Of a DNA stretch of 64,000 nucleotides, positions 2,192 through 60,422 are shown piece by piece. Position 1 is the first letter of the stretch, and the number at the start of each line of letters is the position of its first letter. Made by a program: the position numbers and the translations under genes. Location: assembly GCA_000165345.1 (NCBI GenBank), contig CM000429.1, positions 704,001 to 768,000 of the forward strand, in the 5' to 3' direction. The notes beneath the pieces are model-generated. The model did no database searches. It was not told where the DNA came from and saw only the letters and a list, made by a program, of their open reading frames with translations.

Positions 2192-2227
<36 letters not shown>

Positions 2228-2288
2228 CAGTTCCTCTTTATATATATACATATTGTTATTTATATATAAATATATAATATAGGGGAAA

Positions 2289-5411: not shown

Positions 5412-6028
5412 GGTATGAGAAGGAAAAAAGGATAATTTATAATATATATATATATATATATATTATAAATTGAAAGAAAAGAAGAATAAAACAAATATTA
5501 TATTCTATATTTCGGGGTTTATTTTACTTGAAATATGGTTTTAAATTACTCAACCAGTTGATGATCTTTGCCAATTTCTTCATAGCAATATATAATAATT
5601 CTTTAATTACATGTAAAAATTAATAGTAAATTTAATTAAAAAGTTTGCAGAAACAATTTCAATATTAAAGTTAAAAAAAGGGTATAAATAAAAAAAAAGC
5701 ATTAATTAATAGAAATATCAAGTTAGAGGAGATAAAGTAATTAATAGGAACGGATAATGAAAATTAGGTAGTATAGAAATTCAGAAATAATTCCAGAAAG
5801 TGATAATGTTAGCGAAAAAAGACAATATTTTTTTCTTCTTTTGAAGCTAGTAATTATTTATTTTCTAATGTATTATCAAACTATTTATTGAGATTAAATC
5901 TTGCTCTCTTTTTTAAAATTATTATTATTGATATTTCCTACATAAAACAGAAAGAATTACGTGTCATTTATTATTTTTGCATGCAATGCAACTTTTGGCG
6001 GTAATGTAGTAAGAATAAGGGGTATGTT

Positions 6029-8050: not shown

Positions 8051-9675
8051 TTTGCGATATTCAATCAGTCACTTTTATTATCTTTTCTTTCTTAGTTTAT
8101 ACAATCTTAACTTAATTAAAGCAATAATTTTATTATAATTATTATTATATTTAGGATTATGATTGAAAACTAAATATTGTGGGCTTTTTAAGTAAATAGA
8201 TATATAAAATTAAATAAAAAAAGAAGGAAATGGATCTTTCTTGATTCGATTTTGATTTATATAATCAATCAATAAGCCGAGTTACTTATTTGTAAAAATA
8301 AATTCACATATATTTCTTTTTATTTCCTTTTTTCTTTTTTATTCCTCTTTTTATTTTATCCCTTTATAATAATAATCTACATAATATATACATGGAAAAT
8401 ATTATGTATGCCTGCTTGCCCGCCAAAAATTTTGAAACACGTGGAGATTAAATGACTAAATAAAAAAAGAAAAATAAATAAATTTATTCTAATAATATGG
8501 AAAATTTTCTTACATAAAGTTGTATGAAAGAACATCGTTATTTTATTTTATTTTTCCTAATCTTATTAAAAACATAAAAAATCTGAATATTTCTAAATTA
8601 TACTGCATTCCAAATAAAATGTAATTAGTTATTATCTTTAATTATATCTTGAAAATAAAAGGAAATTATTTGGGAAAGAAAAAAAATAATTAGCTAACAG
8701 TTTAATATCTATTTTTTTAAAAGTATTATTAATAATTAAAATTTTATTTGTACAAATCATCATTACCGGTATTGTTTGAAAAAAAATGCTTGCATTTTCG
8801 CATGCATGCACAATTTTTTACTAAAATCATTTATCCACATAAAATTTTATGTGGACAAAAATTTTAAAAAAATTAAAATTAAGAATAGAAACGAATAAAT
8901 GGTTTATAATGTTTAATTTTGGTATTGAATATTATCTCGTAAATGTATACAAAAAAGAAGAAAAAAAGAATAAGTAGTAGTAAGAAGAAGGATTGTTTGA
9001 TTATTGGTAATTTAATTTTATTTATAGAAAGTAAGTGTATTCAAGAACTCAAGTGAATATATTACAAATACTAAATATTTATTAGCGTAATAAATATTGA
9101 AAAAAATTAATTATTTAAAGTATTTGATTAATAAATATTAATAAGATATATGCGTAATTTGAAAGATTTAGGAGCAAATAGAATATTACAAGTGTGGGGC
9201 GGCCTGTATGTGTGTCATGTCGTAAAATAAATATTTGGGTTATATAAAAATATAAATATATATTTTATATTTATATTATATTGTACTTAAAAAAAAAAAA
9301 TATATTAATGAATAAAGTTTTTCAAAGAAAGGAGAACACAAAACTTGGCTAAATTATAAAATCGAAACTTTTAATAATAATAATATTATTATTATATGCA
9401 TAAATATATATAAAAGGTATAAACAAGATATTGCAAAGAAGAGAATTAATTAAATAGAGAATATAGTGGTGGTTAGTAATAAATATATAATGAAAAATAT
9501 TTGATCCAGAATCTAAAAATTAATAAAATATTCTCTCAGTTAAAATTAGGAGAAAATAAATAAAATAGTTTTAAGGTAAATAAAGAGAATGCAAATTAAC
9601 AAATAATATTTGAAATAATATATAGTTTAAGGAAAAATTATATATTTGAGAATAATAATAATATATTTGAAAAAA

Positions 9676-12476: not shown

Positions 12477-15400
12477 TTAATTGAAAAAGGGGAGTAGTTG
12501 GACAATCTTGCAATTTTGTAGTGTATCAATAATTAAAAGAGTGTTCTTATTGATGAAAATTGCATGGGAAATGATTTTGTTGTATTGATTGGATGTTAAG
12601 CTGTTATTAATAATATTAAGAGGATTTAAAGAAAGGGAATGATTAATATTGAATTTAATAATTGGTACGATTGTAATTTGATTATTATTAAAATATCTTT
12701 TGAAAGATGATTTAAGTAATAGAAATATATGATAAATAATACAAATACCATCAGATGATAATACTGTTAATTTTGAATTAATATAATTCGAATTTCTGTT
12801 AATAATATTATTAAGAGTGTTTAAATTGGATAAATTTGAAGTAAGTATATTCTTTTGTTTAAGTTTAAATAAGCTTGGATTTAAAAATTGTCTTCCAAAT
12901 AAATAAGATATAAACCATAAATTTCCAGTATTTGTAATAATTAAGAGTGTATTAGCTTGTTTCCAATTATGGCTTGTTGAAATTGGTGAACTTTCTAAAG
13001 CTATTAAAAGATCTGGTCGACTAATTATAGGTAAATTATATGATAAATTAGTCCAAATATCCCATATACATAAACAATTTTCATCTGATAATACTGATGA
13101 AATTTCGATCTTACTACTTAAATTCAAAGTATTATCTCCCATAAATTCTGCCAAATTTAATGTACCACTATTAATTAGAGTTCCACCTAATCCAATTCCT
13201 CCTTCACTTTCATTTAAGTAACCATAACTATTACCACCAATTGAATAAGAACTATTGGACTTTGCAGTATTAGGTGTTGATGCATTACTAATCGATTGTG
13301 ATTGAACATTATTGTTATTATTTGTTGTAGTAGTAACACTAATATTACCACCAACAATAGGTATTCTCTCACCTCTTGAATTAAATTTAGTATAGTTTCT
13401 AAAATTGAATGACGACCTTCCAAGTTCATTTCCTTCATTGTTATTAAAACTATTATTATTAATACTAGTAGTGTTATATACGAAATTGATTCCATTACCT
13501 GATGTTAGAATATATCTGCAAGAATAGTCAATAATTCCTGACCAAAAACAATTTGATTTATGTACTTGGAATATATATATTGGAATAAATGGATTCATAG
13601 CAGAACTTGACTTTGAACTTGAATTTGAATTTGAACTTGTGCTTGAACTTGTACTTTGTGCATTAATTGAACTTGAAGTCAAAATAATATTACTGCTGGA
13701 TGATAGTGAAGAATTATTTACACCTCCATTATTGACTGAAGTTGTTTGTAAACTATTATGAGATGAGGAAGGTTGGGAAGGATTAATATTGGGATTAGAA
13801 GGAACAAAAATCTCATCCTCTTCATCAGATAAGTAATTATTGTTGGAGTTGAGTTTATAAACCATAATAAAACCATTCGAAGTTGAGATAATTATATGTA
13901 TTTTACTTGGAGACCAACTTACATGGGTTATATTACCTAAATTATGATTATTTACCATTAATTTATTCAAATTAGTTGAAGTTGTAGGAGGCAATTCTTG
14001 GTGATAATTACGACCTTGGCCAATAGAATCAATACCCTTAAAAGATCTTTTATTAACATTATTTGATGTTAAATTGTAATATGACTTTGATAAACTATTT
14101 GAAATCATTATTGGCTTTGGATTTGATTTACTACTATTAATATTATTAATAATATCTCCAGTAATATTACTACTGGTATTAATAAAATAATTGGGATGAT
14201 TTACTTTATGATAATTACTGAAAGCTAAAGAATGACTCCAATATGGATAAACAATATGAGAAACTCTTGGATTTCTTAATTGTATTGCTTCACCACATAT
14301 TATTGCTTTGACATTATTGAATTGATTTTGTATTTTTGAAAAACTTAACGGAATATCTGTAAATATCTGTAAGAATCGTATTTCTTGAAAATTACAAGTT
14401 AGATGAGATCCTGATCCAATATTTGTATTAAAATCCGATACTCCTCCCCCTATATTTAACTCATTTTCTTTTGATGTATATAAATCGAGATAAATACTTT
14501 TAACTCCTTTCTTTATATTAACACAAAAATCAATATCATATATTGGCATAATACAAGGAGATGATGATGATGATGATAACAATAAGCTTTTATTACTTTT
14601 TCTTCTTTCCAGTTTTCTATATGATAAAAGTCCATGATCATCTTGATTTTCCTCCAATTTCCCAAAAATTAAGAGTCTCTTTAAAAGAAAAGAGTTTAAA
14701 AGAACTTCTAATCTTATGATCTTTTCTGATTTGAAAATGTTATCAAAATCTTCTCCGAATTTACCAAATTTCATTCCCTGAAAAATAACTCCTTCATAAT
14801 AATATGAATTTATATGATTTCTTCTCATAAAACTTATTGGATGAATAAAATATAATTTTGAATTTAACATTAAGTGAGTTTTTTCACCTAATAATAAAAA
14901 TGGACTGTTATTTACATCCATCTTACAATCCATCAATAATGGACTTTCTTGATATAATATATGACCTAATAATGTATTTGATCTTTCTACTCCTTCTTTT
15001 TCACCTTTTTGAATTCTATTCTTATACCATTTATAATAATAATCTTCTTCATTAACATATTCATTTTCATTCTCTAATTCAACTAAAGTTTCAGATTCAT
15101 TCTCATCTTGTTGCTTACTTTGATCAAATCCAAAATAATGATAATAATAAAAATCATCATCTTCATATTGTTTAATCTCATTATCTATTAATATATTATC
15201 ATTCATCATATTCTCCTCTTTTTTACTGTCTCTCTCCAAATCTTCAATATTGTTATTATTACCACTCAAATAGTGAACATTTGGAACTAAATTAAGTTTA
15301 GGAGTTGGAATAATACGATTATTATATATTAACATATTAATCATAAAGAGTGATGGATTATTCATTCTCATTGATTCTTCTTTCTTATTCAATCTGAATC

Positions 15401-18400
15401 TATCATCACTTACTTCAAAGTATTCATTTGAAAAATCTAGTTTCAATTTTTCAAGTTCAAAACCTGAATTTTTATTATTATCATTACTTGTATTTGTTGT
15501 TGTTGAATTTGTACAAGATATACTATTTAATAAATTCACAGAATACTGTTCACTAGATTCTAATTCAATGCTTGAGATATTATTCGAGTTTTCTTTAAAA
15601 TTCCATACCTTCTTCAATAAATAATAATATAAATTACTGATTGATCCAATATCATATGATATTATTAATTCCTTATTTCTTAGTATATTTATTAATAATA
15701 GATTTTTGATTCCCATTCCAATCCAAATTTCTTTTAATATAATAATAATTTTGATTATAATAACATTAATAGTGGGCAGATGATGATTATTAGTATTTAG
15801 TTCAGGATAATTATTAGTATTAACAACTCGAGTAAATAATATACTTTTCTTTTCATCAATAGAATCATAGTAATATGTTAGGATGAGTGGTAATAACGGA
15901 ATAATAATTTCTTTCCATTCTTTAAATACTCTATTATTATAGGACTCTTTTAAAGCAAGATTTAATTGGTCTGTTGTTATCTTGTTTGTAATAGATTCTT
16001 CTTGTAATATAGAATTGAAACTTAACTCGCTATTATTATCTTCATTAATTAATTCTTGATGAATTTTTATTATACTAGTAGATAATACTATTATTATAGT
16101 ATTAAAATACATGAGTTGATCTTCTTTTACATATTGAAATGAATTATTTTGAATTTCTTCTTGGATATTATCATTATTAGAATTACTTTCAATATCTTTA
16201 ATATATCCATATTCTTTAGTAAATTCTAATAATAACCTCAAAAGCTTTAATAACTTGATTCCTAATCTTTTGGTTAATCTTCTTTTTAAATGCAAATCTA
16301 ACTTTTGATAACTTTTTAATATTATAACAAACTTGATTATTTTTATTAAATTTTGATACTTGAGCACATTAATATCTTTAGAACCTTTTATTTTGGATAT
16401 GAGATCCTGTATAATAATCATAAACATATAAATTTTTAATAGCTTGGTTATAATAATTGTTGGATTTTCATTAATAATTTTGGAAGAACCAACTTCTTCT
16501 CCTTCATTTCCAGGCTCTAACAATAATTCAAATAAAATATGATTAACTTTATTCCTAAATATTAAAATTAATAATTCACATTTATTTATAATATATTGAT
16601 CACCATTCCTACTTTCGAAAGTTAATATAATTTCATTATTAATTCTGGAAAAAAACTCAAATAAAGAGTCCCATATATAATCAAATCCAAAATGACCCAA
16701 ATTCCAAGAATTCTTATTTTCTGAAAATATCTCAAAAATTAAATTCAAATATTTACCCCTCAACCCGGAAATATCTTCTGATAGTCTTTTTTTACATGCA
16801 ACATGCATTATGCTAATATCATTTTTAATTACGTCATTTTTTGTGTGCATACCGGTATTGACATTATTAAAATATTTGTCCACATTAGTTAATAATAAAT
16901 AATTAAAAATATTAATAGGATTAATATTAAGATTGTTTTTTTCTTGATTATAGTTGAAATGAAATACGGAAATAAATTCTGGAATTTTGGAATATTGATT
17001 AATCCATTCAAAAAGATTATTGTTGTTTAAGAAGAAGAAGTAATTAATATGTAAATATTTTATATAATTTTGAATTCTATTGAGAATATTTGGCTTAATA
17101 ATTAAATTATAATAATGATAATGAATATTTTTTGTTTTAAAAAAGTCTTGATTATTTTCGATATAAGTTAGCCACGAAATATAATGGTATGGATTCATAC
17201 ATTTTTTGATATAATAAGAAATTATTTCAATTATATTGTCAAATGATGGATATTTTAAGCTTTCACTTAATTCATAAGATTGAGATTGTGAGCTGATTAA
17301 AATTTTTAATTTAATATAATTATTAAATAAGAATAAATGTTCAGGATGTATAAAGCTGTAATTTAAATCATAACTATTTTGATCATTTAAATAAGAATCT
17401 TCAATATATTTATTATTTGGAATGATTTCTTCAATCTTTATATTACTTTTAAAATAATCTTCTATACTACACATTAATTCACAAACTTTAAAGAAAATTG
17501 TTGGACATGATAATTTTAACAAAATATTAAGTATATCCACTCTATTAATATTATCAAATTTGAAATTATTTACACTTGAATAATTTAATATTGATATTAT
17601 GCTTAACCACGGGTCTTTATTTATTAATGATAATAACCATAAATTACTCAAATACTTATTGTAAAGATTCACCAAAGTATTCTTCTCATTATCATTTATT
17701 CCATTCGAGTTTAATAACAATTTTAATAAAAGAAATAATAGTTGTGGATCATTCAAATACTTTATACATATGTTTGCTATTTCGTCATAAGATCTACTTA
17801 ATATAAAGAAACACAAACTCCAATGGTACTTTCTTTGTTTTATCAAGTAATAACCATTATTAATTGCTTGTTTCTTTAATTCATCATTATTTATATTATA
17901 ATTTAATAAAAAATCAAATACATTCTTTTGATCTAAAATCTTAAATATTGCAGAAACTATATTTAATTTATTAATGCATGTGTATATTATCAAAACAATA
18001 TTTAACATTTCATCTTGGAAAATATTACTATTTTTTTTCTGATTATCTGGAAATTCAAAGCTTAATTCTTTTCTCCTTTCAGAAATTACTTTTATCAGGT
18101 TTTGATATAATTTTTGAACCCATTTTTCAATAAATTCCTGAAATTTAAAATTTTCTGTTAATATATAAATCACTCCAAACTTTTTCAAATCTTTCCAGTC
18201 GATTAAATTACTATTAAAATTCCCAAGAATTTTATCAACTATATGGTCCTTTTCGCAAAGTGAAATCCAACAAATATCTTCAGATTTTAATATGAATCCA
18301 CCTTCTCCTAACATATCATAGTAATTTATTCTTATAAAATATCTCTTTATTTGGTATTCTTCGAATTCCGTAATATTCATTCTATGGCCATATGTTTTAT

Positions 18401-21400
18401 TTTTTCTTAGCTCTATTAAAGAATCGTAAAGTTTTTGATATTCTCCTAAATTTTCCAAAGATTTATAATCTTGGTTATCATAATATCCATCCAAATAATC
18501 ATCAAGATTGTAAGGCACAATATTAAGATTTGGTGAATCTTGAATATCCTCTATAATCTTATCAAAAATTTGTTTGGAAAATGATTGCTTTCTATCATTT
18601 AATGAAAAAACAAAATCTTCCAATACTTTAATTTGTTTAAGTGAAAAATTATTTCCTTTCTCATATATATTATTTTCAGGTCTTTTATATATTCTTGGAA
18701 TAATTTGGTCATTTGTATTAAAAAATAAATAAAGTCCATCAAAAATTTCCAATCTTTGTATTCTAATTAACTCACCAGTATTACTCATCTGGAAATGTTC
18801 ATACAAATCTATCTCGTTATTGGTTTCCCATCTACATACGTCCTTGTTCCAGTAAATTGACCCAATAATTTTTCCATGGTTAACTATGAAACAAAAATAA
18901 GTCATTTCAAAGTCTTGAAGAATTACTAGTTGATTATTCTTGTATTTATTATATGAAGTTAAATCATCGTCGCTTTCATTATTTTTTTCAAAAGAGATTT
19001 CCTTTGAAAAATTAATATTTTTTGATTTATACAAACTATAATCATCAATAATTGAAATCTCTTGAAAAGGATTTAAAGAAATGGTTTCTTCTCCTTCAAT
19101 ATTAAGCAGATTTAATGATAATAAAGAATAACAAAGCAATATTCCATTCCTATTATTATAAATTAATAAGTTATAATCCAATGTTTTTATTAATAATGAA
19201 TCTTTTGTGAAATCAAAGAATGATCTGTTCAACTTGATTTTTGAAGTTATTTCAACCTTATTATGGATATCACTTATATTACAAATATATATATAAAGTT
19301 GTCCCATTTCATTAATTTTATTATTATTAATCATTTCTTGGCCATTTTCTTTATCATATATAAAAATATTGGTTGTTACAAATATTAATGATTTTTCAGT
19401 ACTTGGTTGTTTTATTAATAAAAAACATCCATTAAAATTTATATTGGATAAACTTTGATACATATATGTTGATATTAACCTTAATTCTAATTGAATTCCA
19501 GATTTATTATAACTTTTTTCAATTTGGCTTAATAATAGAGATTCTTGATTTTTTATATTAATCTCAAACATTATTATGTGGTTAACTTCAAAAACTAAAT
19601 CTTTAACCAAACATACGCAAATACAATATCCACCAATTACTGAAGAATGTTTATCTAAGAATACGATTTCATATTTATTATCCATAAATTCATTAAAAAA
19701 TAATTTTTCCAGAATTTGTTCATGATTAATAAATAAATCACTATTATCGTTTTCTAAGCTCCCAATATTATCCCCAGAAATTATTCCTTGACTATTAATA
19801 TCAACTTGTAATAATTCTAAAGTTGAAGAACCATTTTCACAAATACTCGTTAGTCCAAATATTCTCAATTGGCTTGAATTATTTAATTGTACTAATAAAA
19901 TCTGATAATAACTGGAAGTTATTCCTTCTGATATATTAACTATTTTTTCAATATTCAAATCATTTAAATCATAAATATCATTATTATCAAATTCTATACC
20001 GTTGTCCACATTAATATTTAATGTGTGCATGTTTGAAAAAATGCATGCAAAATTATTATTTGCATGTATAAATGTAAATAATTTTTTGGGATTAAGATTA
20101 TCTAAAAGAAGGATATGTCCATTATTGAGTAAAATAAGAATTTCATTGATATTAGTAAGCTCTACAGCAAATTTTCCATAAATATTATTAGTATTTTTGA
20201 GATTTGATTGAATTTTTGGAGTAATTCTTATTAATTTTGAAAAATGCCAAATACCAGTTTTGTCATTAAAAATATATTCAGAAATGCTTGAATCTTTTAA
20301 TTGAAATATAAAATTATAATTATTTCCATTTGAATGGTTTGAAAGTTTATCATTCTTCCAAAATATCATAATATTTGACACGTCACTAGGTAAAATATTA
20401 TTTCTATTAGAAATAAAATTCATTTGTGAGTTGTTTATGAAATTCTTATTATCAATATTATTAAATTGGCAGATTTCCCATTTACATATTGATGAATTAA
20501 TTTCATCATTCCAAATGTCTAATTGAAATACATTAAAGCAAAAAACTTCTTTGCCAATGGAAATTATTAACTTTACTTGCTTATTTTGTTCCTCATTCAT
20601 TGTAAAAATATCACAATTATGTATGCAAGAATTTAAAGGAATTGAAGATTTGGAAATCTCATCATATTCTGAATTTAAATTATAATAAAAATAATCATCA
20701 TTGTCATCTTCAACAAGAGGAAATCTATTTGTTGAATAATAATAAGAAGGATCTTCAACTTCAACATTATAATCATTAATAGATTTATCTAATGCTTCCA
20801 TTGAATTAAAATGATGAATTACATTATCTCTATAACTTTCCCAAATTATATTAATATCCTCATTTCTAACGAATGGTCTATTATTAAATCTTAAATATAA
20901 AGTTTGAATAAATTGACATGGTTTATTTAAAGATGATTCTCTCCAAATTCTAATAATTATTTCTTCATTATTTCTTGAAATTATACAAAAAGAAGATAAT
21001 TCTGAAATTCCTCCAAGTTTCTTTAATTTATATGGTATTTTTGATGACCAAGGCTTCCATGAAACATTTATAATCTTTTCTTCTTGTTTTAAAGAAATCT
21101 TTTGAAATTGAAATTGGTTTGGAAATACACCTGAAATACGAGTATTACTACCAATTGTATATAAATTCATCTCTTCTTCATTCTTTGAATATTCATATCT
21201 CCATATAAATAATTCATTATCTAAATGTTGATATACTAGAATAAATCTTTCACTATTATCAAAAGCTAATTGTAAATCTATTCTTGGACCTGCAAAGCTT
21301 AATTCTTGTTCTAATAATGGTTTCGAATCTACACCTGTTAATATTTCTATATATAAATTTTCCAAATCATTTAAAAATGTATTTGATTCCTTTTCAAGTC

Positions 21401-22031
21401 TTCTTCTATATATTATTTCTTTATAAATATCAATATTAAAAATCTCAAATTGTAATTTCCAAACTGTTAAAAAAGTTCCACGATTACTTGAAGAATGTTG
21501 TATTACTAATTTATTATGATCAATCCAACTTATACTCTTCAATTTTCCATCATTATTATTAACTTTTGATAAATCTATCTTAATAAAAAGTCTTAATTTT
21601 ATATTTTTATATCTTTGACTCCATAATATATTTAATCTTCTTCTATGATTTTCTCCTAAAATATCAGTAACTCCAAAACCTTGAATTTCTTTCAAATTTT
21701 CTTTACAAAATTTATTAATATTATTATAATATTCTTCATAATTTATATCAAAATTTGGAGCAATTATTCCTTCATCTAGTAATTCAATATATCTTAAATC
21801 ATCATCAAGAGTCCAAACTTCAAAACTATTTTCAAAACCAATCACTAAAACAAGTAAATCTTCATGCCAACACAAATAAGTTGGTACTACTTCTTCAAGT
21901 GTATCTATTATTTGAATAGTTTTTCCTTGATCAATATTAATTATAGCAACTTTTGGCAGTATACTCTTTTCATCCACTAACACACACAATGGCCACCTAT
22001 TATGAACTGCTCTATTACCGTTGCTATGCAT
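12477..22031 (-). CDS. giant hypothetical protein (3184 aa), WD-repeat-like segments at both ends, N/S-rich linkers
   Basis: Uninterrupted 9.5-kb ORF. WD-like blocks, e.g. GNITHVSWSPSKIHIIISTSNGFIMVYKL and CLCIWDIW. No BEACH, kinase, AAA or chorein motif seen. Family unassigned (a DmX-like/Rav1 architecture was considered but the N-terminus does not match). Confidence 0.65.
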   Translation of the reverse strand: MHSNGNRAVHNRWPLCVLVDEKSILPKVAIINIDQGKTIQIIDTLEEVVPTYLCWHEDLLVLVIGFENSFEVWTLDDDLRYIELLDEGIIAPNFDINYEEYYNNINKFCKENLKEIQGFGVTDILGENHRRRLNILWSQRYKNIKLRLFIKIDLSKVNNNDGKLKSISWIDHNKLVIQHSSSNRGTFLTVWKLQFEIFNIDIYKEIIYRRRLEKESNTFLNDLENLYIEILTGVDSKPLLEQELSFAGPRIDLQLAFDNSERFILVYQHLDNELFIWRYEYSKNEEEMNLYTIGSNTRISGVFPNQFQFQKISLKQEEKIINVSWKPWSSKIPYKLKKLGGISELSSFCIISRNNEEIIIRIWRESSLNKPCQFIQTLYLRFNNRPFVRNEDINIIWESYRDNVIHHFNSMEALDKSINDYNVEVEDPSYYYSTNRFPLVEDDNDDYFYYNLNSEYDEISKSSIPLNSCIHNCDIFTMNEEQNKQVKLIISIGKEVFCFNVFQLDIWNDEINSSICKWEICQFNNIDNKNFINNSQMNFISNRNNILPSDVSNIMIFWKNDKLSNHSNGNNYNFIFQLKDSSISEYIFNDKTGIWHFSKLIRITPKIQSNLKNTNNIYGKFAVELTNINEILILLNNGHILLLDNLNPKKLFTFIHANNNFACIFSNMHTLNINVDNGIEFDNNDIYDLNDLNIEKIVNISEGITSSYYQILLVQLNNSSQLRIFGLTSICENGSSTLELLQVDINSQGIISGDNIGSLENDNSDLFINHEQILEKLFFNEFMDNKYEIVFLDKHSSVIGGYCICVCLVKDLVFEVNHIIMFEINIKNQESLLLSQIEKSYNKSGIQLELRLISTYMYQSLSNINFNGCFLLIKQPSTEKSLIFVTTNIFIYDKENGQEMINNNKINEMGQLYIYICNISDIHNKVEITSKIKLNRSFFDFTKDSLLIKTLDYNLLIYNNRNGILLCYSLLSLNLLNIEGEETISLNPFQEISIIDDYSLYKSKNINFSKEISFEKNNESDDDLTSYNKYKNNQLVILQDFEMTYFCFIVNHGKIIGSIYWNKDVCRWETNNEIDLYEHFQMSNTGELIRIQRLEIFDGLYLFFNTNDQIIPRIYKRPENNIYEKGNNFSLKQIKVLEDFVFSLNDRKQSFSKQIFDKIIEDIQDSPNLNIVPYNLDDYLDGYYDNQDYKSLENLGEYQKLYDSLIELRKNKTYGHRMNITEFEEYQIKRYFIRINYYDMLGEGGFILKSEDICWISLCEKDHIVDKILGNFNSNLIDWKDLKKFGVIYILTENFKFQEFIEKWVQKLYQNLIKVISERRKELSFEFPDNQKKNSNIFQDEMLNIVLIIYTCINKLNIVSAIFKILDQKNVFDFLLNYNINNDELKKQAINNGYYLIKQRKYHWSLCFFILSRSYDEIANICIKYLNDPQLLFLLLKLLLNSNGINDNEKNTLVNLYNKYLSNLWLLSLINKDPWLSIISILNYSSVNNFKFDNINRVDILNILLKLSCPTIFFKVCELMCSIEDYFKSNIKIEEIIPNNKYIEDSYLNDQNSYDLNYSFIHPEHLFLFNNYIKLKILISSQSQSYELSESLKYPSFDNIIEIISYYIKKCMNPYHYISWLTYIENNQDFFKTKNIHYHYYNLIIKPNILNRIQNYIKYLHINYFFFLNNNNLFEWINQYSKIPEFISVFHFNYNQEKNNLNINPINIFNYLLLTNVDKYFNNVNTGMHTKNDVIKNDISIMHVACKKRLSEDISGLRGKYLNLIFEIFSENKNSWNLGHFGFDYIWDSLFEFFSRINNEIILTFESRNGDQYIINKCELLILIFRNKVNHILFELLLEPGNEGEEVGSSKIINENPTIIITKLLKIYMFMIIIQDLISKIKGSKDINVLKYQNLIKIIKFVIILKSYQKLDLHLKRRLTKRLGIKLLKLLRLLLEFTKEYGYIKDIESNSNNDNIQEEIQNNSFQYVKEDQLMYFNTIIIVLSTSIIKIHQELINEDNNSELSFNSILQEESITNKITTDQLNLALKESYNNRVFKEWKEIIIPLLPLILTYYYDSIDEKKSILFTRVVNTNNYPELNTNNHHLPTINVIIIKIIIILKEIWIGMGIKNLLLINILRNKELIISYDIGSISNLYYYLLKKVWNFKENSNNISSIELESSEQYSVNLLNSISCTNSTTTNTSNDNNKNSGFELEKLKLDFSNEYFEVSDDRFRLNKKEESMRMNNPSLFMINMLIYNNRIIPTPKLNLVPNVHYLSGNNNNIEDLERDSKKEENMMNDNILIDNEIKQYEDDDFYYYHYFGFDQSKQQDENESETLVELENENEYVNEEDYYYKWYKNRIQKGEKEGVERSNTLLGHILYQESPLLMDCKMDVNNSPFLLLGEKTHLMLNSKLYFIHPISFMRRNHINSYYYEGVIFQGMKFGKFGEDFDNIFKSEKIIRLEVLLNSFLLKRLLIFGKLEENQDDHGLLSYRKLERRKSNKSLLLSSSSSSPCIMPIYDIDFCVNIKKGVKSIYLDLYTSKENELNIGGGVSDFNTNIGSGSHLTCNFQEIRFLQIFTDIPLSFSKIQNQFNNVKAIICGEAIQLRNPRVSHIVYPYWSHSLAFSNYHKVNHPNYFINTSSNITGDIINNINSSKSNPKPIMISNSLSKSYYNLTSNNVNKRSFKGIDSIGQGRNYHQELPPTTSTNLNKLMVNNHNLGNITHVSWSPSKIHIIISTSNGFIMVYKLNSNNNYLSDEEDEIFVPSNPNINPSQPSSSHNSLQTTSVNNGGVNNSSLSSSSNIILTSSSINAQSTSSSTSSNSNSSSKSSSAMNPFIPIYIFQVHKSNCFWSGIIDYSCRYILTSGNGINFVYNTTSINNNSFNNNEGNELGRSSFNFRNYTKFNSRGERIPIVGGNISVTTTTNNNNNVQSQSISNASTPNTAKSNSSYSIGGNSYGYLNESEGGIGLGGTLINSGTLNLAEFMGDNTLNLSSKIEISSVLSDENCLCIWDIWTNLSYNLPIISRPDLLIALESSPISTSHNWKQANTLLIITNTGNLWFISYLFGRQFLNPSLFKLKQKNILTSNLSNLNTLNNIINRNSNYINSKLTVLSSDGICIIYHIFLLLKSSFKRYFNNNQITIVPIIKFNINHSLSLNPLNIINNSLTSNQYNKIISHAIFINKNTLLIIDTLQNCKIVQLLPFFN

Positions 22032-23252: not shown

Positions 23253-23654
23253 TGACAATAATATGTTTAAATAATTAATTCATAATAGAGAAAATTATTT
23301 GGATTATTTATCTCTAAATCTATAATTAGAGACTACCGATATAAGAGCACAGGAAAAAGAAAGATATAAGAATTGATTTGGAATATATTAGTCATCCACT
23401 TGATAGTTCAAAAAGTATCGAGCCAGTTTTTTTTTTAAAGAGAAAAAAAGTATTTTTGAAAATTAAGATCAAACAATAATCATATAACCATTGTTTCTTT
23501 TTCTTTTAAAAAAAGTTTTACAGATTTGATACCTGAGAATAATTATACGGTACTAGTAAAAATGCATGTATATTATTAATTGTGAGCCAGATGAATGTAA
23601 ACATTGCATGCAATAGATGGCAACTATTTTAAGAAATTTTTTAAAAAAACAAAG

Positions 23655-34097: not shown

Positions 34098-35173
34098 ATG
34101 AGTGTGTATCCATCTGAATCACATCATTTGAAAGAATGGGTTTTTGGATCTTTAGATTTATTAAAAACAAAAAAAAATTACATTAATGAGAAAGCAAAAG
34201 AAAATTGGAAGGATATTTTTAGACAAATTTCGAGTGAGAATTTTGAGATTAATGAGTTGTTATTAACATCAAAAGATGAAGAAACTTTAATTTCTTATTA
34301 TGGTAGACAATTGATAGAATTTTGTAATCATAAACAGCTTCCATTTGTTTCAAAATATAATGCATCAATATTATATCATAGATTTTTTACTAATCAAAGT
34401 GTAATGGATTATGATCCTAGAATTATAATATTTACAAGTATATCATTAGCATTAAAATTAGAAGAATTTGGACTTCATTTTACATTAGAGAAACTTTTTG
34501 GAGATGTCCCAGGTTTGAATATACAAGAAGTTTTTAGACATGAATTAACTGTGTGTAATACATTAAAATTTCATTTATATATATTAAATCCAAGAAATAC
34601 ATTAGAAGGTTTAAGACTTTTATATAAAAAGTATTATATAGATATTTTGGTAGTTGATGAGAATTTGGATAATAATGATCATAAGAAAACTGAAAATAAG
34701 AAAAATCAATTAATAAGTTTATTATCAAAAGTTATATTAAAAGCAGAAACATACGTATTAATGATTTTACATACATTGTAAGTTTTTTTTTAAAATTTTT
34801 AATTAATGAAAATTAACTATTTTAAATATTTAGGTGTTTTCTAATATATACTCCTTCACAAATTTCAATTGCACTTTTTGATATTAGTGCTAGAGAACTT
34901 AATTTACCTCATTCTGGGGAATTTTTAAAGAAAGTTCTTAAAGAAATTCACCAAGCTAATAGTTTTCAATTAAATGCTGAAACAAGTCATTCTAGTTTAA
35001 CAATTATACATTCAGTTCGAGATTTTGTTATGCAAACTTTAGAAAATGATAGAATTGCAAGAGAAAGAGGCTATGAACATGAAGAAATTGAAACTACGCG
35101 AATTCTTGATAAACTAGGTAAATTACAAAGAAGAAGGAATAAGGAAATGAAGAGAAGAAAGAAGAGTTCCTAA
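34098..35173 (+). CDS. ccnh: cyclin H (2 exons: 34098..34777, 34834..35173)
   Basis: Cyclin-H blocks YYGRQLIEFCN, NQSVMDYDPRIIIFTSISLALKLEEF and FHLYILNPRNTLEGL. GTAAGT donor at 34778 and TAG acceptor ending 34833 restore the frame, and exon 2 begins LCFLIYTPSQISIALFD (cyclin box 2). Stop TAA at 35171-35173. Confidence 0.85.
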
Positions 35174-35221
35174 ATATAATTGATTAATACATTTAAATAT
35201 AAATATAGATATATAATAAAA

Positions 35222-35270
<49 letters not shown>

Positions 35271-35451
35271 TTTATTAATTCATGCACTCAACTAACTTTA
35301 ATCGCATGCAGATTAGTTTTTGCATGCTAACCCAGTTTTTTTTGTCAAAATTTTTTACACGTAATTTACACGTAATTAATTTAATATTATTTCTTGAATT
35401 ACTTTTTAAATAAAAAGGGGGTAGCGCGGGAAATTGGGAAAGAAAAAAAGA

Positions 35452-36306: not shown

Positions 36307-37253
36307 TATTGTCAGTAGTAATTAAGTATATATTTTTTACTATTATTATTAGTATTAATATAAATATTATTATTATTTTAATACTTTATTTCCTTATATA
36401 GGAAATAAATTAAAAGAATAAAAAAAAAGGAAATTCACTGTTCGACACTTCAAGTGCTTCTAAAGTATAATCCTCTTATGCCATAATAAGTTATTTTGAG
36501 AAATTTTGTATGGAGATAGTGCAATCCTAATATTCAATAATATGATCCTCAATTAGTTAAAAGCTATTTATTATCAATTATTATTTTACAATATTTTTAA
36601 AATTTATATCATTTTTTTGGCGCGCAATTAGCATTTATCCCACAATATTTATTATTTATATTTCCAACTAATTAATAGAATTAATAATGGAATATATTTG
36701 AACTCTAAAACCGAGAATTTTTTAAATATTCTTTTTATAATTAAAAATATGTAATGGTAACTTTAATTCATTAAAAATACTAGCTAAATAATAAGAAATA
36801 TATTCGGAAATTTATCGATAAATAATTAGAAGAAAAAATGAGTACCGAATATAAAATTAGAAATAATCTTTGTTTATACAGAAATATTGTATTAATAATG
36901 AATAATTATTACAAGGTACCGTTAAAAATCTGCTAATTTGTTGAAGCATTATAATTTAACAAATTTCAATTTCCATTGTTACTACTACGATTGCCCCTCA
37001 GCCGATTTCTTACCAAATTGATTTATAAATTCTTTCATTTAAAAACAAAAATAGTAATTTAATATATACCGGTATCGGTAAATTTTAAAGTGTGTAATAT
37101 TGTAAAAATTCATAATTATTCCTTTTTTCTTTCTTTTAAAGCTACTTTAATATATACTAACTGAACGCTTATATTACAAATTCATGCAGAATATACAGTA
37201 GATTAGTTTATCTAATACCAGATTTATTTTTGATATATATACATATTACATCC

Positions 37254-38936: not shown

Positions 38937-39763
38937 TTTTTCTTGAATAAAAGGTTACTCTTTTCCTTTTCTTCTACACCATTGATACCACTCTCAGTAA
39001 TATATTATAACTAATTCAGTCACTCACCCATTTCTTCTTTTTTGCTGTAGAAGAAGAAAGTTCAATTAACATTCATTTATTCACCTCAATATTTCTTTAT
39101 TCTCCATTAAATGGTAACTTCAATATTTAGGCGGCAACTGTTGTGCATGCACCACATGCAAATTACTCAATAATGTGGGGCGGGCACAATAAATAATAAA
39201 GGAAGTGCCATATTAGTTTGTGTAAATTTGTTGTGGTTTATTTTCACCAATGATAACAAATTCGGAACATAAAGTTACAAAAAGAATATCGTACATCGTT
39301 AATTAAAAGTAATTTAGTGATTATAAATCATTAAAATTTTGAATATGAAATTGGTTAGTAACAACTATAAGTAATTCGTTTTCTTATCATTTTATATTGT
39401 TACCATTTATATTCTTTTTTTATTGGACTTTTCAAGATTCCAGATATGTTTGAAATTATTGTTTTGAATTAATTTCGTGCATATCTATGTTTTTTTCTTT
39501 ACTAAATGGTCTTGTTAAAAATCACTATCTCTGATTCAATTTTTTCTTTTTTTCCCTGAATTATTGAAGATTATAGTTTACTAGAAACTAATATTATTTT
39601 TTGCCATAAAAATATTTAAAAAATATATATAGATATATTACATTACCGGTAAAAAAAAAAAAAAAAAAAAAAATTTAACCCCAAAAAACTTAAAATTCTC
39701 AAAAAAAAAAAATAAATACAAAAGAAAGGAATTGTAAAATTGATTAAAGTATTAAGGTTAAAA

Positions 39764-40332: not shown

Positions 40333-40657
40333 ATTATTCTTTTAGCTATTATTAATTCCTATTTAAATATTATAATTATTTTTTTTTCCATCACTTATTT
40401 AAAAAAATAAAATAATTAAAACAATTACGTGTTTGACTAAATTATTATTATTATTATTTTTGCATGTGGTCAACTTTTGTACCGGTATTTACATGCATTA
40501 TTGAAAATAACTTTATGTGGACAAATTAATGCAAGAATTAAATTAAATTTTAGGAATGATATAGATTGAATTATTAAAAAATAATAAATTGGAACATGCA
40601 AAATAAAATTAATATTAAAATTGAACAAGTAAATAATTAATTAATTAATTTAATACA

Positions 40658-45392: not shown

Positions 45393-46615
45393 ATAAATTA
45401 ATTAATGCAGAAGCTATTCACGACAATCGCTTGATCAATTGTAGTATTAATATAATCCAAAATATTCATTCAATTATCCAATATTAATAATTAGAAACTT
45501 AATTAATCATTTATTTATTTACAAAATTGATCAATTCATGTATTGTTTGTAATGATATTAAAATTAAATGATTCTTTAATTACATATAAAAGATTAAATA
45601 TTTCATTATATTTAAATCGTATGTGATCAATTTACTAATAAATATTTATTAGTAAAAAATCAAGTTCATATACAGAAAACTATATTAAATTCAACAAATT
45701 TCCATGTTAAAGATCTTTAAGTAATATTAATAATTTTTTTTGTATTATTCAAGAGCAAATATTATTTTTTTTATTTTTTTTTATTTTTTTTTATTATTAT
45801 TTTACTATTATTATTAATAATAATATTATTATTTATTACTATAATAATATCAATATTATTATCTCCTCATACTTTTCTTGTGTTAATGCTACCTTGATTT
45901 GCCCTTTATTCTGCCCCCATCCTAACTTTAACCTCTGTAGATTATGCTAATAAATCACGGCGGAGACTAGACGTGGCGCAAAGGACTCTTTGCGTTGGGT
46001 AAATTTGTGGGGCAACGCAGATTCTATGTGGATGTCAAAAGTGACGTGTTTGGTTCTGAACCGGTATAGGGATTTGATTAATTGCATGTACAACTATGTG
46101 GACAATTTTTTTAAAAAAATGCATGTGAATATGCATGCATAGATGCGAAAAATAATAATAACAAACAAAGTGGATTTCTCAGTAATTATTGAGAAAAAGA
46201 ACTACAAAGATAAGTTGGAAATAAGAGAATAAAAAAAGGGAATAATAACAATAATAATTAATTGTAAAAACTTGGGATAATGTTAATATCAGAGACGAGT
46301 GCAACAAGCACAATGAAATATCAACAAAGATCCGATAATTGTATTTAATATAGGCATGACTTAGCACCATAAGATCAGTGAACTCTCAAATTGTTTTTTT
46401 ATTCAAGAAGTTATCAATTACAGTGACTCTGTATGCCAAAAAATTAAATGAATTCAAATTAATATTTATGAGAATAAATTTGTATTCATTGAAAAGGGAG
46501 AAAATAAAATTTGAAAATGGAGTTGACTTTTTTTTAAAAATAACGAAGTTACATTTTAATGGGTAATAAGTATTAATATATACATTAAAGAAATGAAAAA
46601 TTATAATTTTTACTA

Positions 46616-47998
46616 TTATTCACCAGAAAGTCCAAATTTATTAGTCCATTCAGTGAATTTGTCAATATCAAGATTTGTAATTGAAGATTTGGTTTTTGAT
46701 AATACATGAATAAGGTCAGATTTAGTTAATTTTGGAGGTAAAAGCTGGTTGTTCGGAATATCATAAAGTGAAGTTTTTCTATATAGTTCTTTATCATAAT
46801 GATCAATATTTGAAGGTTGGGAACAAGGAGTCCAATAAATCTTAAAATTTTCAGCATTATTATTAGTGATTTCATCATTATTATTCATTATAACAACTTT
46901 TTTAAACCAATTGGATTCACTACATTTACGTATTGGTTCAAATAAAGCATCTTTAATTAATATAGAGACATCGCTGGAACTATAACCATGAGTCATCTTT
47001 GCTATATAATTAATATCATCATCAATTAAAGAATGATTAATGGATTTTAAACCATTCTTAATCAACAATACACGGGATTCTTCATCTGGAAGTGGGATAT
47101 AAATTCTTCTTTCAAATCTCCTACGAATTCCTGAATCAATTTCCCAGGGTATATTTGTAGTACCAAGTACTAGAATGGGCTTAAAATTGTTGTTATTAGA
47201 ATTTGAATTTACGCCATCCATTTGAACAAGAAATTCTGTTTTAATACGTCTGGTTGCTTCATTTTCTTGTTCATTACGGCTACTACATAAACTATCAATT
47301 TCATCAATAAAAATGATAGAAGGAGCTCTTTCTCTAGCAACATCAAATAAAGCTTTAATTAGCTTTTCTGATTCACCTTGCCATTTACTAGTAAGATCAG
47401 CACTAGAAATGGAAAGAAATGTACCCTTCATTTCAGTTGCACAAGCTTTAGCAAGAAAAGTTTTTCCAGTACCTGGTGGTCCATATAAAAGAATGCCTTT
47501 CCAAGGCTTTAATTTTCCTTGAAATAATTCAGGAAATTTGGCTGGTAGAATTACTGCCTCTTTAAGAGAAGTTTTTGCTTGTTCAAGTCCTATAATATCA
47601 TCCCAAGAGATATTTGGGCTTTCCATTAAAATACAACTACGGATTGCATCTTTAAGAGGATCATTAATATTTGATGGATTTTGGGAACTTTTAGAAATAT
47701 TTTCTGAAGATGAAGATGATGATAAACCTGGTGTTGAAGTTGAAGCTAAATTTGGATTAGAAATGGTTTTTGATCCTTTTCCATTGTTATTAATCAAATT
47801 CTTTATTTGTTCAGCTCTGGAAACTAATTGTTCCATTCTAGTAAGAAGAACTTTTTTAACTCTTTCATCATTTTGATATTTACAAATATGGTCCCATTTT
47901 TGAAGAGCTGAAATATATATATTCAATGCTTCTTCCAGATTCCCAATCTTTTCTTTTTCAGTACCTTGTTTAATGAGATCCAGAATATTGTTAATCAT
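46616..47998 (-). CDS. vps4: vacuolar protein sorting 4 (VPS4), MIT domain + AAA ATPase
   Basis: N-terminal MIT helix pair. [58 protein letters not shown] and C-terminal KFTEWTNKFG are nearly collinear with human VPS4A/B. Confidence 0.9.
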   Translation of the reverse strand: MINNILDLIKQGTEKEKIGNLEEALNIYISALQKWDHICKYQNDERVKKVLLTRMEQLVSRAEQIKNLINNNGKGSKTISNPNLASTSTPGLSSSSSSENISKSSQNPSNINDPLKDAIRSCILMESPNISWDDIIGLEQAKTSLKEAVILPAKFPELFQGKLKPWKGILLYGPPGTGKTFLAKACATEMKGTFLSISSADLTSKWQGESEKLIKALFDVARERAPSIIFIDEIDSLCSSRNEQENEATRRIKTEFLVQMDGVNSNSNNNNFKPILVLGTTNIPWEIDSGIRRRFERRIYIPLPDEESRVLLIKNGLKSINHSLIDDDINYIAKMTHGYSSSDVSILIKDALFEPIRKCSESNWFKKVVIMNNNDEITNNNAENFKIYWTPCSQPSNIDHYDKELYRKTSLYDIPNNQLLPPKLTKSDLIHVLSKTKSSITNLDIDKFTEWTNKFGLSGE

Positions 47999-53449: not shown

Positions 53450-54023
53450 TCTTTTTTATGTTTATTTTTTCTTTCTTTAGTTATACATGGTAGATTTATT
53501 ATTGATAACCATAATATTATCGAAATGATCAATATACTTGTTAATATACTGAATAATATAGCCAAGTACTTAATTTCCATATATTCTTTCCTAGACTTTT
53601 TAAAAATAGTAATTCAATTCTTTGCAACTTTTCTTTTTAAATGTTACCCCTCTTTACTTTTTTTTAATGATATTCCCCTTTTATTGTGTGTGCCTTACGT
53701 GTCAATATTGTATATCCAAGAACAAATCGCAAATTGCCTTTCCCGCCAACATGTTTACCTTGAAATATTGTGCAATTTTATAAAGAAAAAAAAAAAGTAT
53801 TTAGTGGTTATTTTCATAGTGAGAAAAAATGGATAAATAATTTAACCAACTAATCAAAAATATTAACAAATTAATTTTCATGATTGTGTTATTCAGTAAT
53901 AATGTGTTTCGTGGTGGGGGGAAGAAGAAAACAATAATAATCAAAAGATGACGTGTGGGCGGTAAAAACATGCAATTTAGAATAAATATATTTTGTGTAA
54001 ATATAATTATTAATAATAAATCA

Positions 54024-55247: not shown

Positions 55248-55677
55248 TTTCCTTTAAAGCTCTACTACTAAGCTAAGCTTAAAGTAATAAGTAGTTTTAA
55301 TTTAATATATTAGAAACCTTAAACTATTTAATAATTGAAACTCTGAGAAGTTTAAATACTCAAATTGTATAATGATTTTCCATTTCCATTTGTTTACTCG
55401 TTTTTTTTATTATTTTCGTTATGTCAAATTAAGACATTCGATTACTATTAATTTAAAAAACTCAAATTTTGGCGCCTATACCGGTAAAATGACGTGGAAT
55501 TTTAATTGGGTGAATGGAAAAAAAATTATTTGTATTTGCATGACATTACGTCATTCATTCAAAAATATTAAATTATAAAATAAATGGATATGTTTTTTAA
55601 ATAAATTATTAAGATTCAAATGAATCATAAGAAGTGTCAAGCTTTGATCAATTTTTTCTAGTTTTAATATATTAAAA

Positions 55678-57868: not shown

Positions 57869-58072
57869 TTTCATTTTTTTTTTTTAACTAATGCTTAAAG
57901 CATGCATGCATTACAAATTGCATGCAATTTGTAATAGTTGACACGTAACAATTGTTTTGTGAATATAATTAATAGAATTTTTTCTTTTTTTTTTAATTTT
58001 AAAAAATCAAATATAAAATATGCGATATAATACAGAATAAATATGGATAATCAATTATTATGAAATTTGGAA

Positions 58073-59756: not shown

Positions 59757-60422
59757 ATGCAATCATATAAAATCAATGAATTTGGCAATGAAATTCATAA
59801 CAACAAGATAAATTTCGAGCCTTCTGGATTATTAGCTAAGGAATCAAACTCTCTAAATGGAGTATTTCTAAAGGTATGTTTTTAAATAAGTTTAAGAAAA
59901 CTTTATTAAAAAAAAAAGTATTCAAAACCTTCAGATTCATGCAATTCACATAAAAAATGGAAACTTTATGTATTTAAATATAATTATCCACATGATGTGG
60001 GGAAAAATGACAATACCGGTATTGTGCATGTAAATAATGACAGTTCATGTGGACAACACGTATATAATGAAACAATACCATTATATAATAATGAATATTA
60101 TTTAATAGGTAATTTTTGATGAAAATTTCAGTTAATTAATTAATTATCTTTTTTCTTTGATAAATAAGGTAAGGATGCAAGAGTAGTTAATATAAACTTA
60201 AAAGAAGACTCGATAGAAGATCAACATGCAGTAATACAACATAGAGTTAATAAGAAAGGTATTCCAACAATATATATAATAGATTTAGATAGCAAGTATG
60301 GTACATTTATTAATGATGAGAGAATAGAGTCAAGAAGATATTATGAGTTAATTGAGAAAGATTCGATCCGATTTGGTGAATGTAAAAATGAATATATTTT
60401 ATTGCATGATGGAATGATATGA
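59757..60422 (+). CDS. snip1: SNIP1/Pml1-like FHA-domain protein (3 exons: 59757..59873, 59919..60108, 60169..60422)
   Basis: Exon 1 INFEPSGLLAKESNSLNGVFLK matches SNIP1 PNFELSGALLEDTNTFRGVVIK. Exon 2 YSKPSDSCNSHKKWKLYVFK...ETIPLYNNEYYLIG matches YSEPPEARIPKKRWRLYPFKNDEVLPVMYIHRQSAYLLG. Exon 3 GKDARVVNINLKEDSIEDQHAVIQHRV..IYIIDLDSKYGTFINDERIESRRYYELIEKDSIRFG..EYILLHD matches the FHA core. Donors GTATGT at 59874 and GTAATT at 60109; acceptors end at 59918 and 60168. Confidence 0.7.

Follow-up and report, generated by a model that had tools for sequence, protein, structure and literature searches.

Recurrent motif clusters in a Cryptosporidium parvum chromosome 1 region and a probable promoter of the antisense transcript Cp_lnc_62

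Why do the same three short sequence motifs recur together along a 64-kb stretch of Cryptosporidium parvum chromosome 1, and what might the cluster at positions 46025-46140 do, which points into the 3' end of a protein-coding gene? The stretch (hereafter the window; contig CM000429.1 of assembly GCA_000165345.1, positions 704,001 to 768,000, with all coordinates below counted from its first letter) extends from cgd1_3200 to about cgd1_3490, has a G+C content of 20-32% and is densely packed with genes. A first-pass annotation, made from the sequence alone, described a composite of ACCGGYAT, GCATG and YATGTGGAYR with fixed spacing, and offered two explanations: a shared cis-regulatory module or a miniature dispersed repeat. 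The current work supports the former and rejects the latter. The clusters are probably compact cis-regulatory modules of the RNA polymerase II promoter or enhancer type, composed from a small motif vocabulary, and the flagged copy is probably the promoter and 5' end of the long non-coding RNA (lncRNA) Cp_lnc_62.

The DNA had also been assigned to a dictyostelid, which is wrong; the flanking proteins are products of C. parvum chromosome 1 genes from cgd1_3200 onwards, and the Vps4-like ORF has an exact match in three C. parvum assemblies. Because the organism is an apicomplexan, neither the analogy with the Dictyostelium G-box and its binding factor GBF nor the use of dictyostelid repeat libraries is applicable. 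The Dictyostelium site has a similar G/T-rich core with TGTGG, and no relation is expected. Gene context was taken from annotated assemblies and an open reading frame (ORF) map. Orthologous loci were compared in C. meleagridis, Cryptosporidium chipmunk genotype I, C. ubiquitum, C. felis, C. xiaoi and C. muris. The published table of motifs upstream of lncRNAs (PMC7840661, sheet S3) served as an independent sample for co-occurrence and order.

The motif vocabulary and its clustering

All strings of the earlier description are present where it had placed them, in the copies at 1751, 8765, 40481 and 60015 and in the partial copies at 24819 and 55478. The first sub-motif is a palindrome, (A/G)TACCGG(T/C)AT, with the 8-mer core TACCGGTA (M1). 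The middle one, GCATG(C/T)A, is the ApiAP2 site AP2_1, with the core TGCATG(C/T)A. The third is an oriented decamer (M3), (C/T)ATGTGGACAA, that is, (C/T)ATGTGGA(C/T)AA, and exact ATGTGGACAA occurs seven times. The copies are referred to as A (1717-1797), B (8763-8858), C (40425-40539), D (the focal copy, 46025-46140), E (59985-60056) and G (partial).

These words are far more frequent in the window than expected: ACCGGYAT gave 12 strand-hits at 9 loci (0.40 expected) and YATGTGGAYR 11 hits (0.76 expected). An unbiased 8-mer screen ranked the same vocabulary at the top of the words that are not of low complexity, with TGCATGCA (15 versus 0.6 expected), TACCGGTA (10 versus 0.41), ACGTGTCA (5 versus 0.15) and ATGTGGAC (8 versus 0.72). 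In non-coding DNA alone, 13 copies of TGCATGCA were found where 0.1-0.8 were expected. An ACGT-core box (TGACGTG or ACGTGTCA) and E2F-type GGCGCC are often present as additional words.

The motifs also occur together. Among 22 CCGG sites and 18 ATGTGG[AT][CT] sites, 10 pairs lie within 100 bp of each other on either side, compared with 1.2 expected. All four intergenic regions with an ATGTGGA[CT]-type site are among the 8 of 31 that carry an ACCGGYA palindrome (P=0.002), and the gapped pattern ACCGGYAT-N20-32-ATGTGGA has four matches in the window, compared with none in 100 shuffles. Recurrence beyond the shuffled background therefore stood up in the window, where the co-occurrence of the sub-motifs is solid. 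Palindromes without ATGTGGA are found at 24819, 37068, 39645 and 55480. The exact ATGTGGACAA sites are located at 8849, 16885 (minus strand), 20011 (minus), 36052 (minus), 40515, 46096 and 60047. All seven are in sense orientation relative to a local or downstream transcription unit, three being intergenic and four coding (0.06 expected), with none antisense.

The association is found again in independent data. Li et al. (2021; PMC7840661, Fig. 2D and sheet S3) reported MEME motifs from the 100 bp upstream of 396 C. parvum lncRNAs, in which Motif1 is E2F, Motif2 is the ApiAP2 motif ANTTGCATGYA and Motif3 is a T-run. Motif4, CCCATACCAGGTGGA, is made up mainly of a tandem repeat at a single locus, Cp_lnc_184; some of its instances, CCTATACCGGC and CCCATACCGGC, hold the ATACCGG half of the palindrome together with the 5' flank of the site at 55478. 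Motif5, TTGTCCACATK, is the exact reverse complement of (C/A)ATGTGGACAA, matched in the window by TATGTGGACAA and CATGTGGACAA, and is found at 19 sites in the 100 bp that precede 18 lncRNAs (PMC7840661). Motif2 accompanies Motif5 at 11 of these 18 lncRNAs versus 44 of the 378 others (Fisher P=2e-6); with perfect GTCCACAT cores only, P=6e-5. The co-occurrence generalises, and strict order and spacing do not.

AP2_1 is the known member of this vocabulary. Several C. parvum AP2 domains bind TGCATGCA on protein-binding microarrays (PMC3734150, PMC4117751), and the ApiAP2 domains that recognise TGCAT include those of cgd2_3490, cgd1_3520, cgd8_3230 and cgd5_4250, among others (Bankier 2003; PMC3734150; PMC4117751). 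The gene cgd1_3520, whose product is reported to bind both TGCAT and the G-box, is located about 5.4 kb past the right end of the window (836-2506 of sequence L009). Here as in the published work, AP2_1 is strongly over-represented in non-coding DNA and is also found upstream of lncRNAs. It was described as a single site, whereas in these clusters it is joined by two other motifs, and six or seven AP2 proteins are candidates for it.

The two partners of AP2_1 were absent from the C. parvum catalogues consulted, namely Oberstaller 2013 (25 motifs), the AP2 specificities of Oberstaller 2014 and the tables of a 2025 review; no AP2 domain is reported in those catalogues to bind the palindrome or ATGTGGACAA, and Table 4 of the review gives none preferring ATGTGGACAA. 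A literature search for Cryptosporidium with ACCGGT, CCGGTA and TGTGGAC returned no main-text description of these motifs. The main text of PMC7840661 names and discusses E2F and AP2_1 only, leaving Motif4 and Motif5 without name, factor or grammar; the partnership of Motif5 with AP2_1, its conservation across species and its presence in spacers on the mRNA side and in exons were worked out here. The Cryptosporidium G-box-like motifs DTGTGGGG and G.GGGG (AP2 domains of cgd8_810 and cgd2_2990; PMC3734150, PMC4117751) have the (A/T)TGTGG core in common with ATGTGGACAA. However, ATGTGGACAA ends in ACAA and not GGGG, and this 3' part is conserved, with seven exact decamers. True TGTGGGG sites flank copy D (46006), copy E (59996) and the kinase promoter (9193).

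The focal copy and Cp_lnc_62

Copy D occupies part of a 1.2-kb spacer that runs from the GPI2/PIG-C start to the Vps4 stop, and it is directed into the 3' end of Vps4. Four of the five copies had been placed between gene starts, which does not hold for the focal one, since its spacer joins a 3' end to a distant 5' end. The features of this locus are as follows.

46025-46036, plus strand: TATGTGGATGTC, the upstream ATGTGGA-type site of the focal module, whose last base adjoins the assembled 5' end of Cp_lnc_62 (46037)
46037-47944, plus strand: Cp_lnc_62, matched to the window from the supplementary FASTA of PMC7840661; begins with AAAAGTGACGTGTTTGGTTCTGAACCGGTATAGGG
46041-46048, plus strand: GTGACGTG, an ACGT-core box
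46060-46067, plus strand: ACCGGTAT, a half-degenerate copy of the palindrome M1
46083-46090, plus strand: TGCATGTA, an AP2_1-type ApiAP2 site
46095-46105, plus strand: TATGTGGACAA, the oriented decamer M3, reverse complement of Motif5 of Li et al. (2021)
46120-46140, plus strand: TGCATGTGAATATGCATGCAT, two more AP2_1-type sites
46257-46450, plus strand: a strongly conserved, probably structured block inside Cp_lnc_62

Counted from the assembled start of Cp_lnc_62, the focal motifs span -12 to +104. The RNA is antisense to Vps4 and covers nearly all of its coding sequence (CDS; 46616-47998, minus strand). This transcript is listed as antisense to CPATCC_0035890 (Vps4) and is among 167 lncRNAs conserved in the genus (PMC7840661). 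It belongs to lncRNA cluster 4, described as switched on at 48 h, and its variance-stabilised (VST) expression values are 5.67, 5.25, 5.22, 5.79 and 7.61 (PMC7840661), in columns taken, from the sample scheme of that paper, as oocyst, 0 h, 2 h, 24 h and 48 h. The long spacer at this locus is accounted for by the lncRNA, which lies outside CDS annotation sets. The focal element is best read as the putative promoter and 5' region of Cp_lnc_62.

Conservation at the focal copy differs from motif to motif. Both C. ubiquitum and chipmunk genotype I retain TATGTGGATGTC, which reads ATGTAAATGTC in C. meleagridis. The CCGGT core of ACCGGTAT is kept in all three, and the TGCATG of TGCATGTA in C. meleagridis and C. 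ubiquitum; the focal TATGTGGACAA is present only in C. parvum and C. meleagridis. The core common to C. ubiquitum and the chipmunk genotype consists of ATGTGGATGTCAA, TGACGTG and CCGGT. Words related to GTGACGTG, namely TGACGTGG, TTACGTGT and ACGTGTCA, are found beside other copies.

A similar position was observed at one other locus of the window:

39643-39652, no strand assigned: palindrome TTACCGGTAA, 53 nt upstream of the 5' end of Cp_lnc_76 (39592, minus strand)

Cp_lnc_76 extends from 39592 to 37914 on the minus strand, is antisense to the HAD/S6PP gene and also belongs to cluster 4. A motif at or near a transcript start was thus observed at two lncRNA loci only (Cp_lnc_62 and Cp_lnc_76); Cp_lnc_61, the remaining lncRNA of the three in the window, has no module. 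The plus-orientation lncRNA FASTA contained no sequences downstream of copies A, B, C or G or of two convergent spacers. The 48-h profile of both associated lncRNAs, a sample of two, hints at a late, gamont-stage programme. Homopolymer or low-complexity A/T runs are found beside the motif islands at 39654-39680 and 45740-45860; the poly-A/T run beside TTACCGGTAA, with about 29 bases in a tract of about 35, is scored as Motif3 in PMC7840661.

Further inside Cp_lnc_62, the block at 46257-46450 has the anchors AACTTGGGA, TCCGATAATT, CTTAGCACC and CAGTGACTCTGT in five Cryptosporidium species, including the GC-rich C. felis. Its consensus fold has 32 pairs with 96% of cells paired, compared with 18-37% in slid controls, and six pairs show compensatory double changes, a value reached by 1 of 500 shuffles. 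The G-U pairs favour the plus strand. The block matched no Rfam covariance model; it may be among the novel intermediate-size non-coding RNAs (79 novel) of PMC9465071. The word AAACTTGG, common to the block and the kinase upstream region, was only marginally enriched (7 versus 2.3 expected, reached in 2 of 100 shuffles). Scans of the 64-kb window and the focal spacer found no transfer RNA (tRNA) and no Rfam family at the gathering threshold, and the GC-richer stretch at 45900-46020 matched no known RNA family in the same tRNA and Rfam scans. A paralogue search with the neighbouring TSP1-domain protein returned only orthologues from other species and no further C. parvum loci.

Other copies, their conservation and copies in coding DNA

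The remaining clusters and isolated sites of the window are listed below.

1717-1797, plus strand: copy A, with TGCATGCAAGAATT, GGTACCGGCATAGGCGCC (M1 fused to E2F-type GGCGCC), TGCATGCA and CATGTGGATG
8763-8858, plus strand: copy B (loose), with TTACCGGTATT, GCATGCATGCA and the inverted pair TTATCCACAT / TATGTGGACAA
16795-16886, minus strand: module-like cluster in a 3184-codon ORF, with AATGTGGACAA, ATACCGGTAT, TGACGTAA and TGCATGTTGCATG in the minus-strand reading
20002-20066, minus strand: partial cluster in the same ORF, without ACCGGYA, with three AP2_1-type sites followed by AATGTGGACAA
24770-24844, plus strand: partial copy G, with E2F-like TTGGCGGC/GCCCGCC, GGTACCGGTAT and TGCATGCA, without ATGTGGA
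37066-37081, no strand assigned: ATACCGGTATCGGTAA, an isolated M1 site not kept in C. ubiquitum
40425-40539, plus strand: copy C, with TTACGTGT, GCATGTGGTCAA, GTACCGGTAT, ACATGCAT, TATGTGGACAA and ATGCAAGAATT
55471-55497, minus strand: partial copy GGCGCC-TAT-ACCGGTAA-AATGACGTGG in the bidirectional promoter of Dus and a 655-aa gene
59985-60056, plus strand: copy E, with TATCCACATGATGTGGGG, ATACCGGTAT, GTGCATGTA and CATGTGGACAA, in-frame codons YPHDVGKNDNTGIVHVNNDSSCGQ in exon 2 of an FHA-domain gene (59757-60422)

At the intergenic copies, motifs have been retained while the surrounding sequence diverged. Copy A, mid-way in the 1.3-kb divergent spacer between a Vma12-like gene and cgd1_3210, is located within a block of about 135 nt (1722-1856) that is near-identical in chipmunk genotype I and has diverged flanks. 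Copy B lies mid-way in a 1.6-kb divergent spacer, and every one of its motifs is kept in the chipmunk genotype across a 15-nt insertion. Copy C precedes the ATG of a 172-aa gene by 134-233 bp. Its order TTACGTGT, GCATGTGGTCAA, TACCGG(T/C)AT, (A/G)CATGCA, TGTGGA is kept in four species; C. meleagridis and C. ubiquitum show the same order, and in C. felis, where the local G+C content is about twice as high, it is degenerate. The C. felis orthologous region (L005, 1-9900) has 45-63% G+C, compared with about 25% in C. parvum, with proteins about 88% identical; because of this compositional shift, conserved AT-rich motifs stand out.

The site at 55471-55497 is kept in C. ubiquitum (GGCGCC-ATACCGGTAA-TGACGTGG), has one mismatch in the chipmunk genotype and reads ACCTGTC in C. 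xiaoi. Its reverse complement, ACCGGTATAGGCGCC, equals copy A at 14 of 15 bases. The string ACCGG(C/T)ATAGGCGCC, a palindrome followed by a 3-nt spacer and GGCGCC, occurs twice, at 1751-1765 (plus) and 55471-55485 (minus), and both occurrences are conserved; the 14/15 match suggests a recurrent composite of the palindrome and an E2F site.

Over five spacers, per-base identity to C. ubiquitum and the chipmunk genotype was 0.83 for M1 (P=0.008) and 0.88 for the ATGTGGA of M3 (P=0.0008) against a background of 0.67; the value for TGCATG in the same spacers, 0.75, was not significantly different from that background. The motifs are thus under purifying selection when compared with the non-coding DNA around them, less so at the focal copy, and the palindrome at 37066 is not conserved. 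Motifs that are kept at syntenic loci while their flanks diverge, as seen across C. meleagridis, the chipmunk genotype, C. ubiquitum and C. felis, leave the footprint of cis-regulatory sites. Loss in C. parvum was observed too: in the convergent spacer 57869-58072, ATGTGGAC is present in C. ubiquitum and the chipmunk genotype and has decayed in C. parvum.

Convergent 3'-3' spacers (5412-6028, 23253-23654, 34782-35451, 53837-54023 and 57869-58072) carry AP2_1 sites, often with ACGTGT/TGACGT boxes. E2F-type sites, in contrast, are found in divergent and tandem 5' spacers. AP2_1 in 3'-3' spacers fits the published finding that antisense lncRNAs begin at the 3' ends of genes.

A place between gene starts does not hold for copy E either, which is not intergenic and lies in frame in exon 2 of the FHA-domain gene. 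This gene has three exons, and its spliced CDS equals the 186-aa product annotated in the IOWA-ATCC assembly. The motif segment of exon 2 corresponds to an in-frame gap in the C. xiaoi and C. muris orthologues. Relative to C. ubiquitum, 1 of 25 third codon positions differs in the motif stretch, versus about 24% (19-32%) across the remaining gene, and relative to chipmunk genotype I none of the 63 third positions of exon 2 (59919-60108) differs, versus 28% in exon 1. This constraint, seen at a single locus, is compatible with a function at the DNA or RNA level that would overlap the codons. The other two coding clusters are both in the sense orientation of the ORF at 12477-22031. The one at 16795-16886 holds AP2_1 sites, the palindrome, TGACGTAA and ATGTGGACAA in an order unlike that of other copies; the one at 20002-20066 holds AP2_1 and ATGTGGACAA only.

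Explanations of the clusters and their significance

A preferred layout may be described as a palindrome, then an AP2 site, then ATGTGGACAA pointing toward the transcription unit. A putative dimeric factor would bind the palindrome, and ApiAP2 proteins that recognise TGCAT would bind AP2_1, sometimes together with E2F/DP. A second putative factor would bind ATGTGGACAA in an orientation-dependent manner near the start site, and the binding of these factors would set the place and stage of transcription start. At the focal locus the product would be Cp_lnc_62, running antisense through Vps4, with induction at the 48-h gamont stage. The layout is a preference and is not rigid, and over evolution every locus has retained a motif arrangement of its own.

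The promoter reading draws on observed enrichment, clustering and conservation across species, on the coincidence with lncRNA 5' ends, and on the finding that ATGTGGACAA and TGCATG occur together, genome-wide, in the regions preceding lncRNAs. Several points weigh against it. The 5' ends of the lncRNAs were assembled from short reads, so that errors of tens of bases are possible, and most focal motifs are located just inside the assembled transcript, not upstream of it. Conservation is poorest at the focal copy, where C. ubiquitum and the chipmunk genotype both lack the 3' ATGTGGACAA and the latter also has a mutated TGCATG. In C. xiaoi and C. muris, the orthologous loci of 22 kb contain no ACCGGTA. 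A promoter role is also harder to envisage for the three clusters in coding DNA. In the lncRNA table, ATGTGGACAA is directed toward the lncRNA at 13 of 19 sites, which is not significant, and a sense-oriented ATGTGGACAA has an AP2 site upstream, at 15-47 nt, in only five of seven cases. Peaks of the assay for transposase-accessible chromatin with sequencing (ATAC-seq) in sporozoites are reported to be enriched for E2F and not for AP2 motifs (bioRxiv 2025.01.17.633476). Finally, the palindrome and ATGTGGACAA are candidate protein-binding sites; published in-vitro binding data concern TGCATGCA alone among the motifs (PMC4117751).

How rigid the arrangement is separates the promoter reading from a stricter version, in which one complex would read ACCGGYAT, GCATG and ATGTGGAC at about 33-38 bp as an enhanceosome-like or bipartite composite. 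Four copies have the palindrome and ATGTGGA 31-37 bp apart, about three helical turns, with the AP2 site floating 11-23 bp from the palindrome, and the spacing is unchanged in close relatives at 1751, 40481 and 60015. The actual distances, however, are 37, 33, 35 and 31 bp, so that of the fixed 33-38 bp composite of the earlier description the co-occurrence holds and the fixed spacing is not clearly beyond chance: given the clustering, for four of ten pairs to share one 7-nt range of distances P=0.03-0.11, or 0.08-0.21 without the coding copy (P=0.03-0.2 in all), and one of the four spaced copies is a coding exon. The distance at 40481 is 33, 33, 30 and 23 bp in four species, 30 being that of C. 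ubiquitum and 23 that of C. felis; it is 83 bp at 8765, 98 bp in the chipmunk orthologue of that copy and 65 bp in a copy specific to C. ubiquitum. Many palindromes have no ATGTGGA at all. With this drift between orthologues and the mixed order in the lncRNA table, strict order and spacing had been overstated, and a rigid composite is unlikely. The motifs could instead act in RNA, as sites for RNA-binding proteins, stability or export in a 5' leader, since ACCGGTAT, TGCATGTA and TATGTGGACAA fall at +24 to +69 of the assembled Cp_lnc_62 and ATGTGGACAA is always sense in the window, including the coding sites (4 versus 0.06 expected). Yet two of the three motifs are palindromic, which is typical of sites for dimeric DNA-binding proteins, and TGCATGCA is a proven DNA site of AP2 domains. 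Motif5 occurs on both strands upstream of lncRNAs (13 versus 6), and a sense bias of ATGTGGACAA in coding DNA is expected from purine-rich coding strands. Action at the RNA level thus seems quite improbable.

Two further explanations were considered. Full clusters are found about every 10 kb, several of them mid-way in unusually long spacers of 1.2-1.6 kb and not beside a start codon, and some in genes or 3'-3' spacers, a distribution that might suit a replication origin, a chromatin boundary or a site of cohesin or condensin loading. No positive evidence for such an element was found, and promoter function explains the lncRNA 5'-end coincidence and the upstream enrichment, which makes a non-transcriptional element very unlikely. 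The miniature dispersed repeat proposed earlier, a relic of a transposon with an ancestor of about 80 bp, would account for three sub-motifs recurring in the same order and on the same strand within one window. Six aligned copies, when examined as a repeat or a miniature inverted-repeat transposable element (MITE), share only the motif columns, 12 of them invariant. The spacers between the motifs are unrelated, which argues that the copies are not a dispersed repeat. Terminal inverted repeats and target duplications were not found, the copies examined are syntenic with no insertion or deletion of a whole copy between species, and the motifs also occur singly and in other orders. The chance that the clusters are such a repeat is close to negligible, and the cis-regulatory module remains the favoured reading.

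AP2_1 was already known and Motif5 had been listed, unnamed; as a whole, the module belongs to a familiar class. What is new is that the palindrome is conserved within Cryptosporidium, that ATGTGGACAA and AP2_1 are partners, that the focal copy is tied to Cp_lnc_62 and that one exon holds a copy under synonymous constraint. The same 8-10-bp palindrome TACCGGTA is found in oomycete promoters as motif M94 of P. infestans (Roy et al. 2013, PMC3597505), and also as streme-5 of Plasmopara halstedii, ATACCGGTAT, and motif-9 of Seidl et al., GTACCGGTA, as cited in PMC10031896. There it is a predicted conserved promoter motif, linked to germinated-cyst and hyphal genes, in another lineage of the Stramenopiles-Alveolata-Rhizaria (SAR) group. 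The oomycete link is a resemblance between sequences and may serve as a lead.

On a broader and much more tentative reading, which we consider rather doubtful, the palindrome, AP2_1 and ATGTGGACAA would form a dedicated late (48-h, gamont-stage) promoter architecture of the lineage of C. parvum, C. ubiquitum and C. felis. On this view it would initiate internal transcripts as well as antisense and intergenic lncRNAs, would be read partly by a non-AP2 factor shared with oomycetes, and would be written into exons under synonymous constraint, as in FHA exon 2 and the 3184-codon gene.

Regulation in Cryptosporidium is usually framed by ApiAP2, E2F/DP and a few Myb proteins, and the published motif catalogues are short, containing AP2_1, GCACAC, G-box, E2F, GAGA and CAAT motifs. 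Two words under purifying selection together with AP2_1, TACCGGTA and ATGTGGACAA, are added here and may be used as baits for the missing DNA-binding proteins. They are also candidate elements for stage-specific transgene promoters, and they may provide a handle on how antisense transcription is switched on at housekeeping genes, such as Vps4, in the sexual stages.

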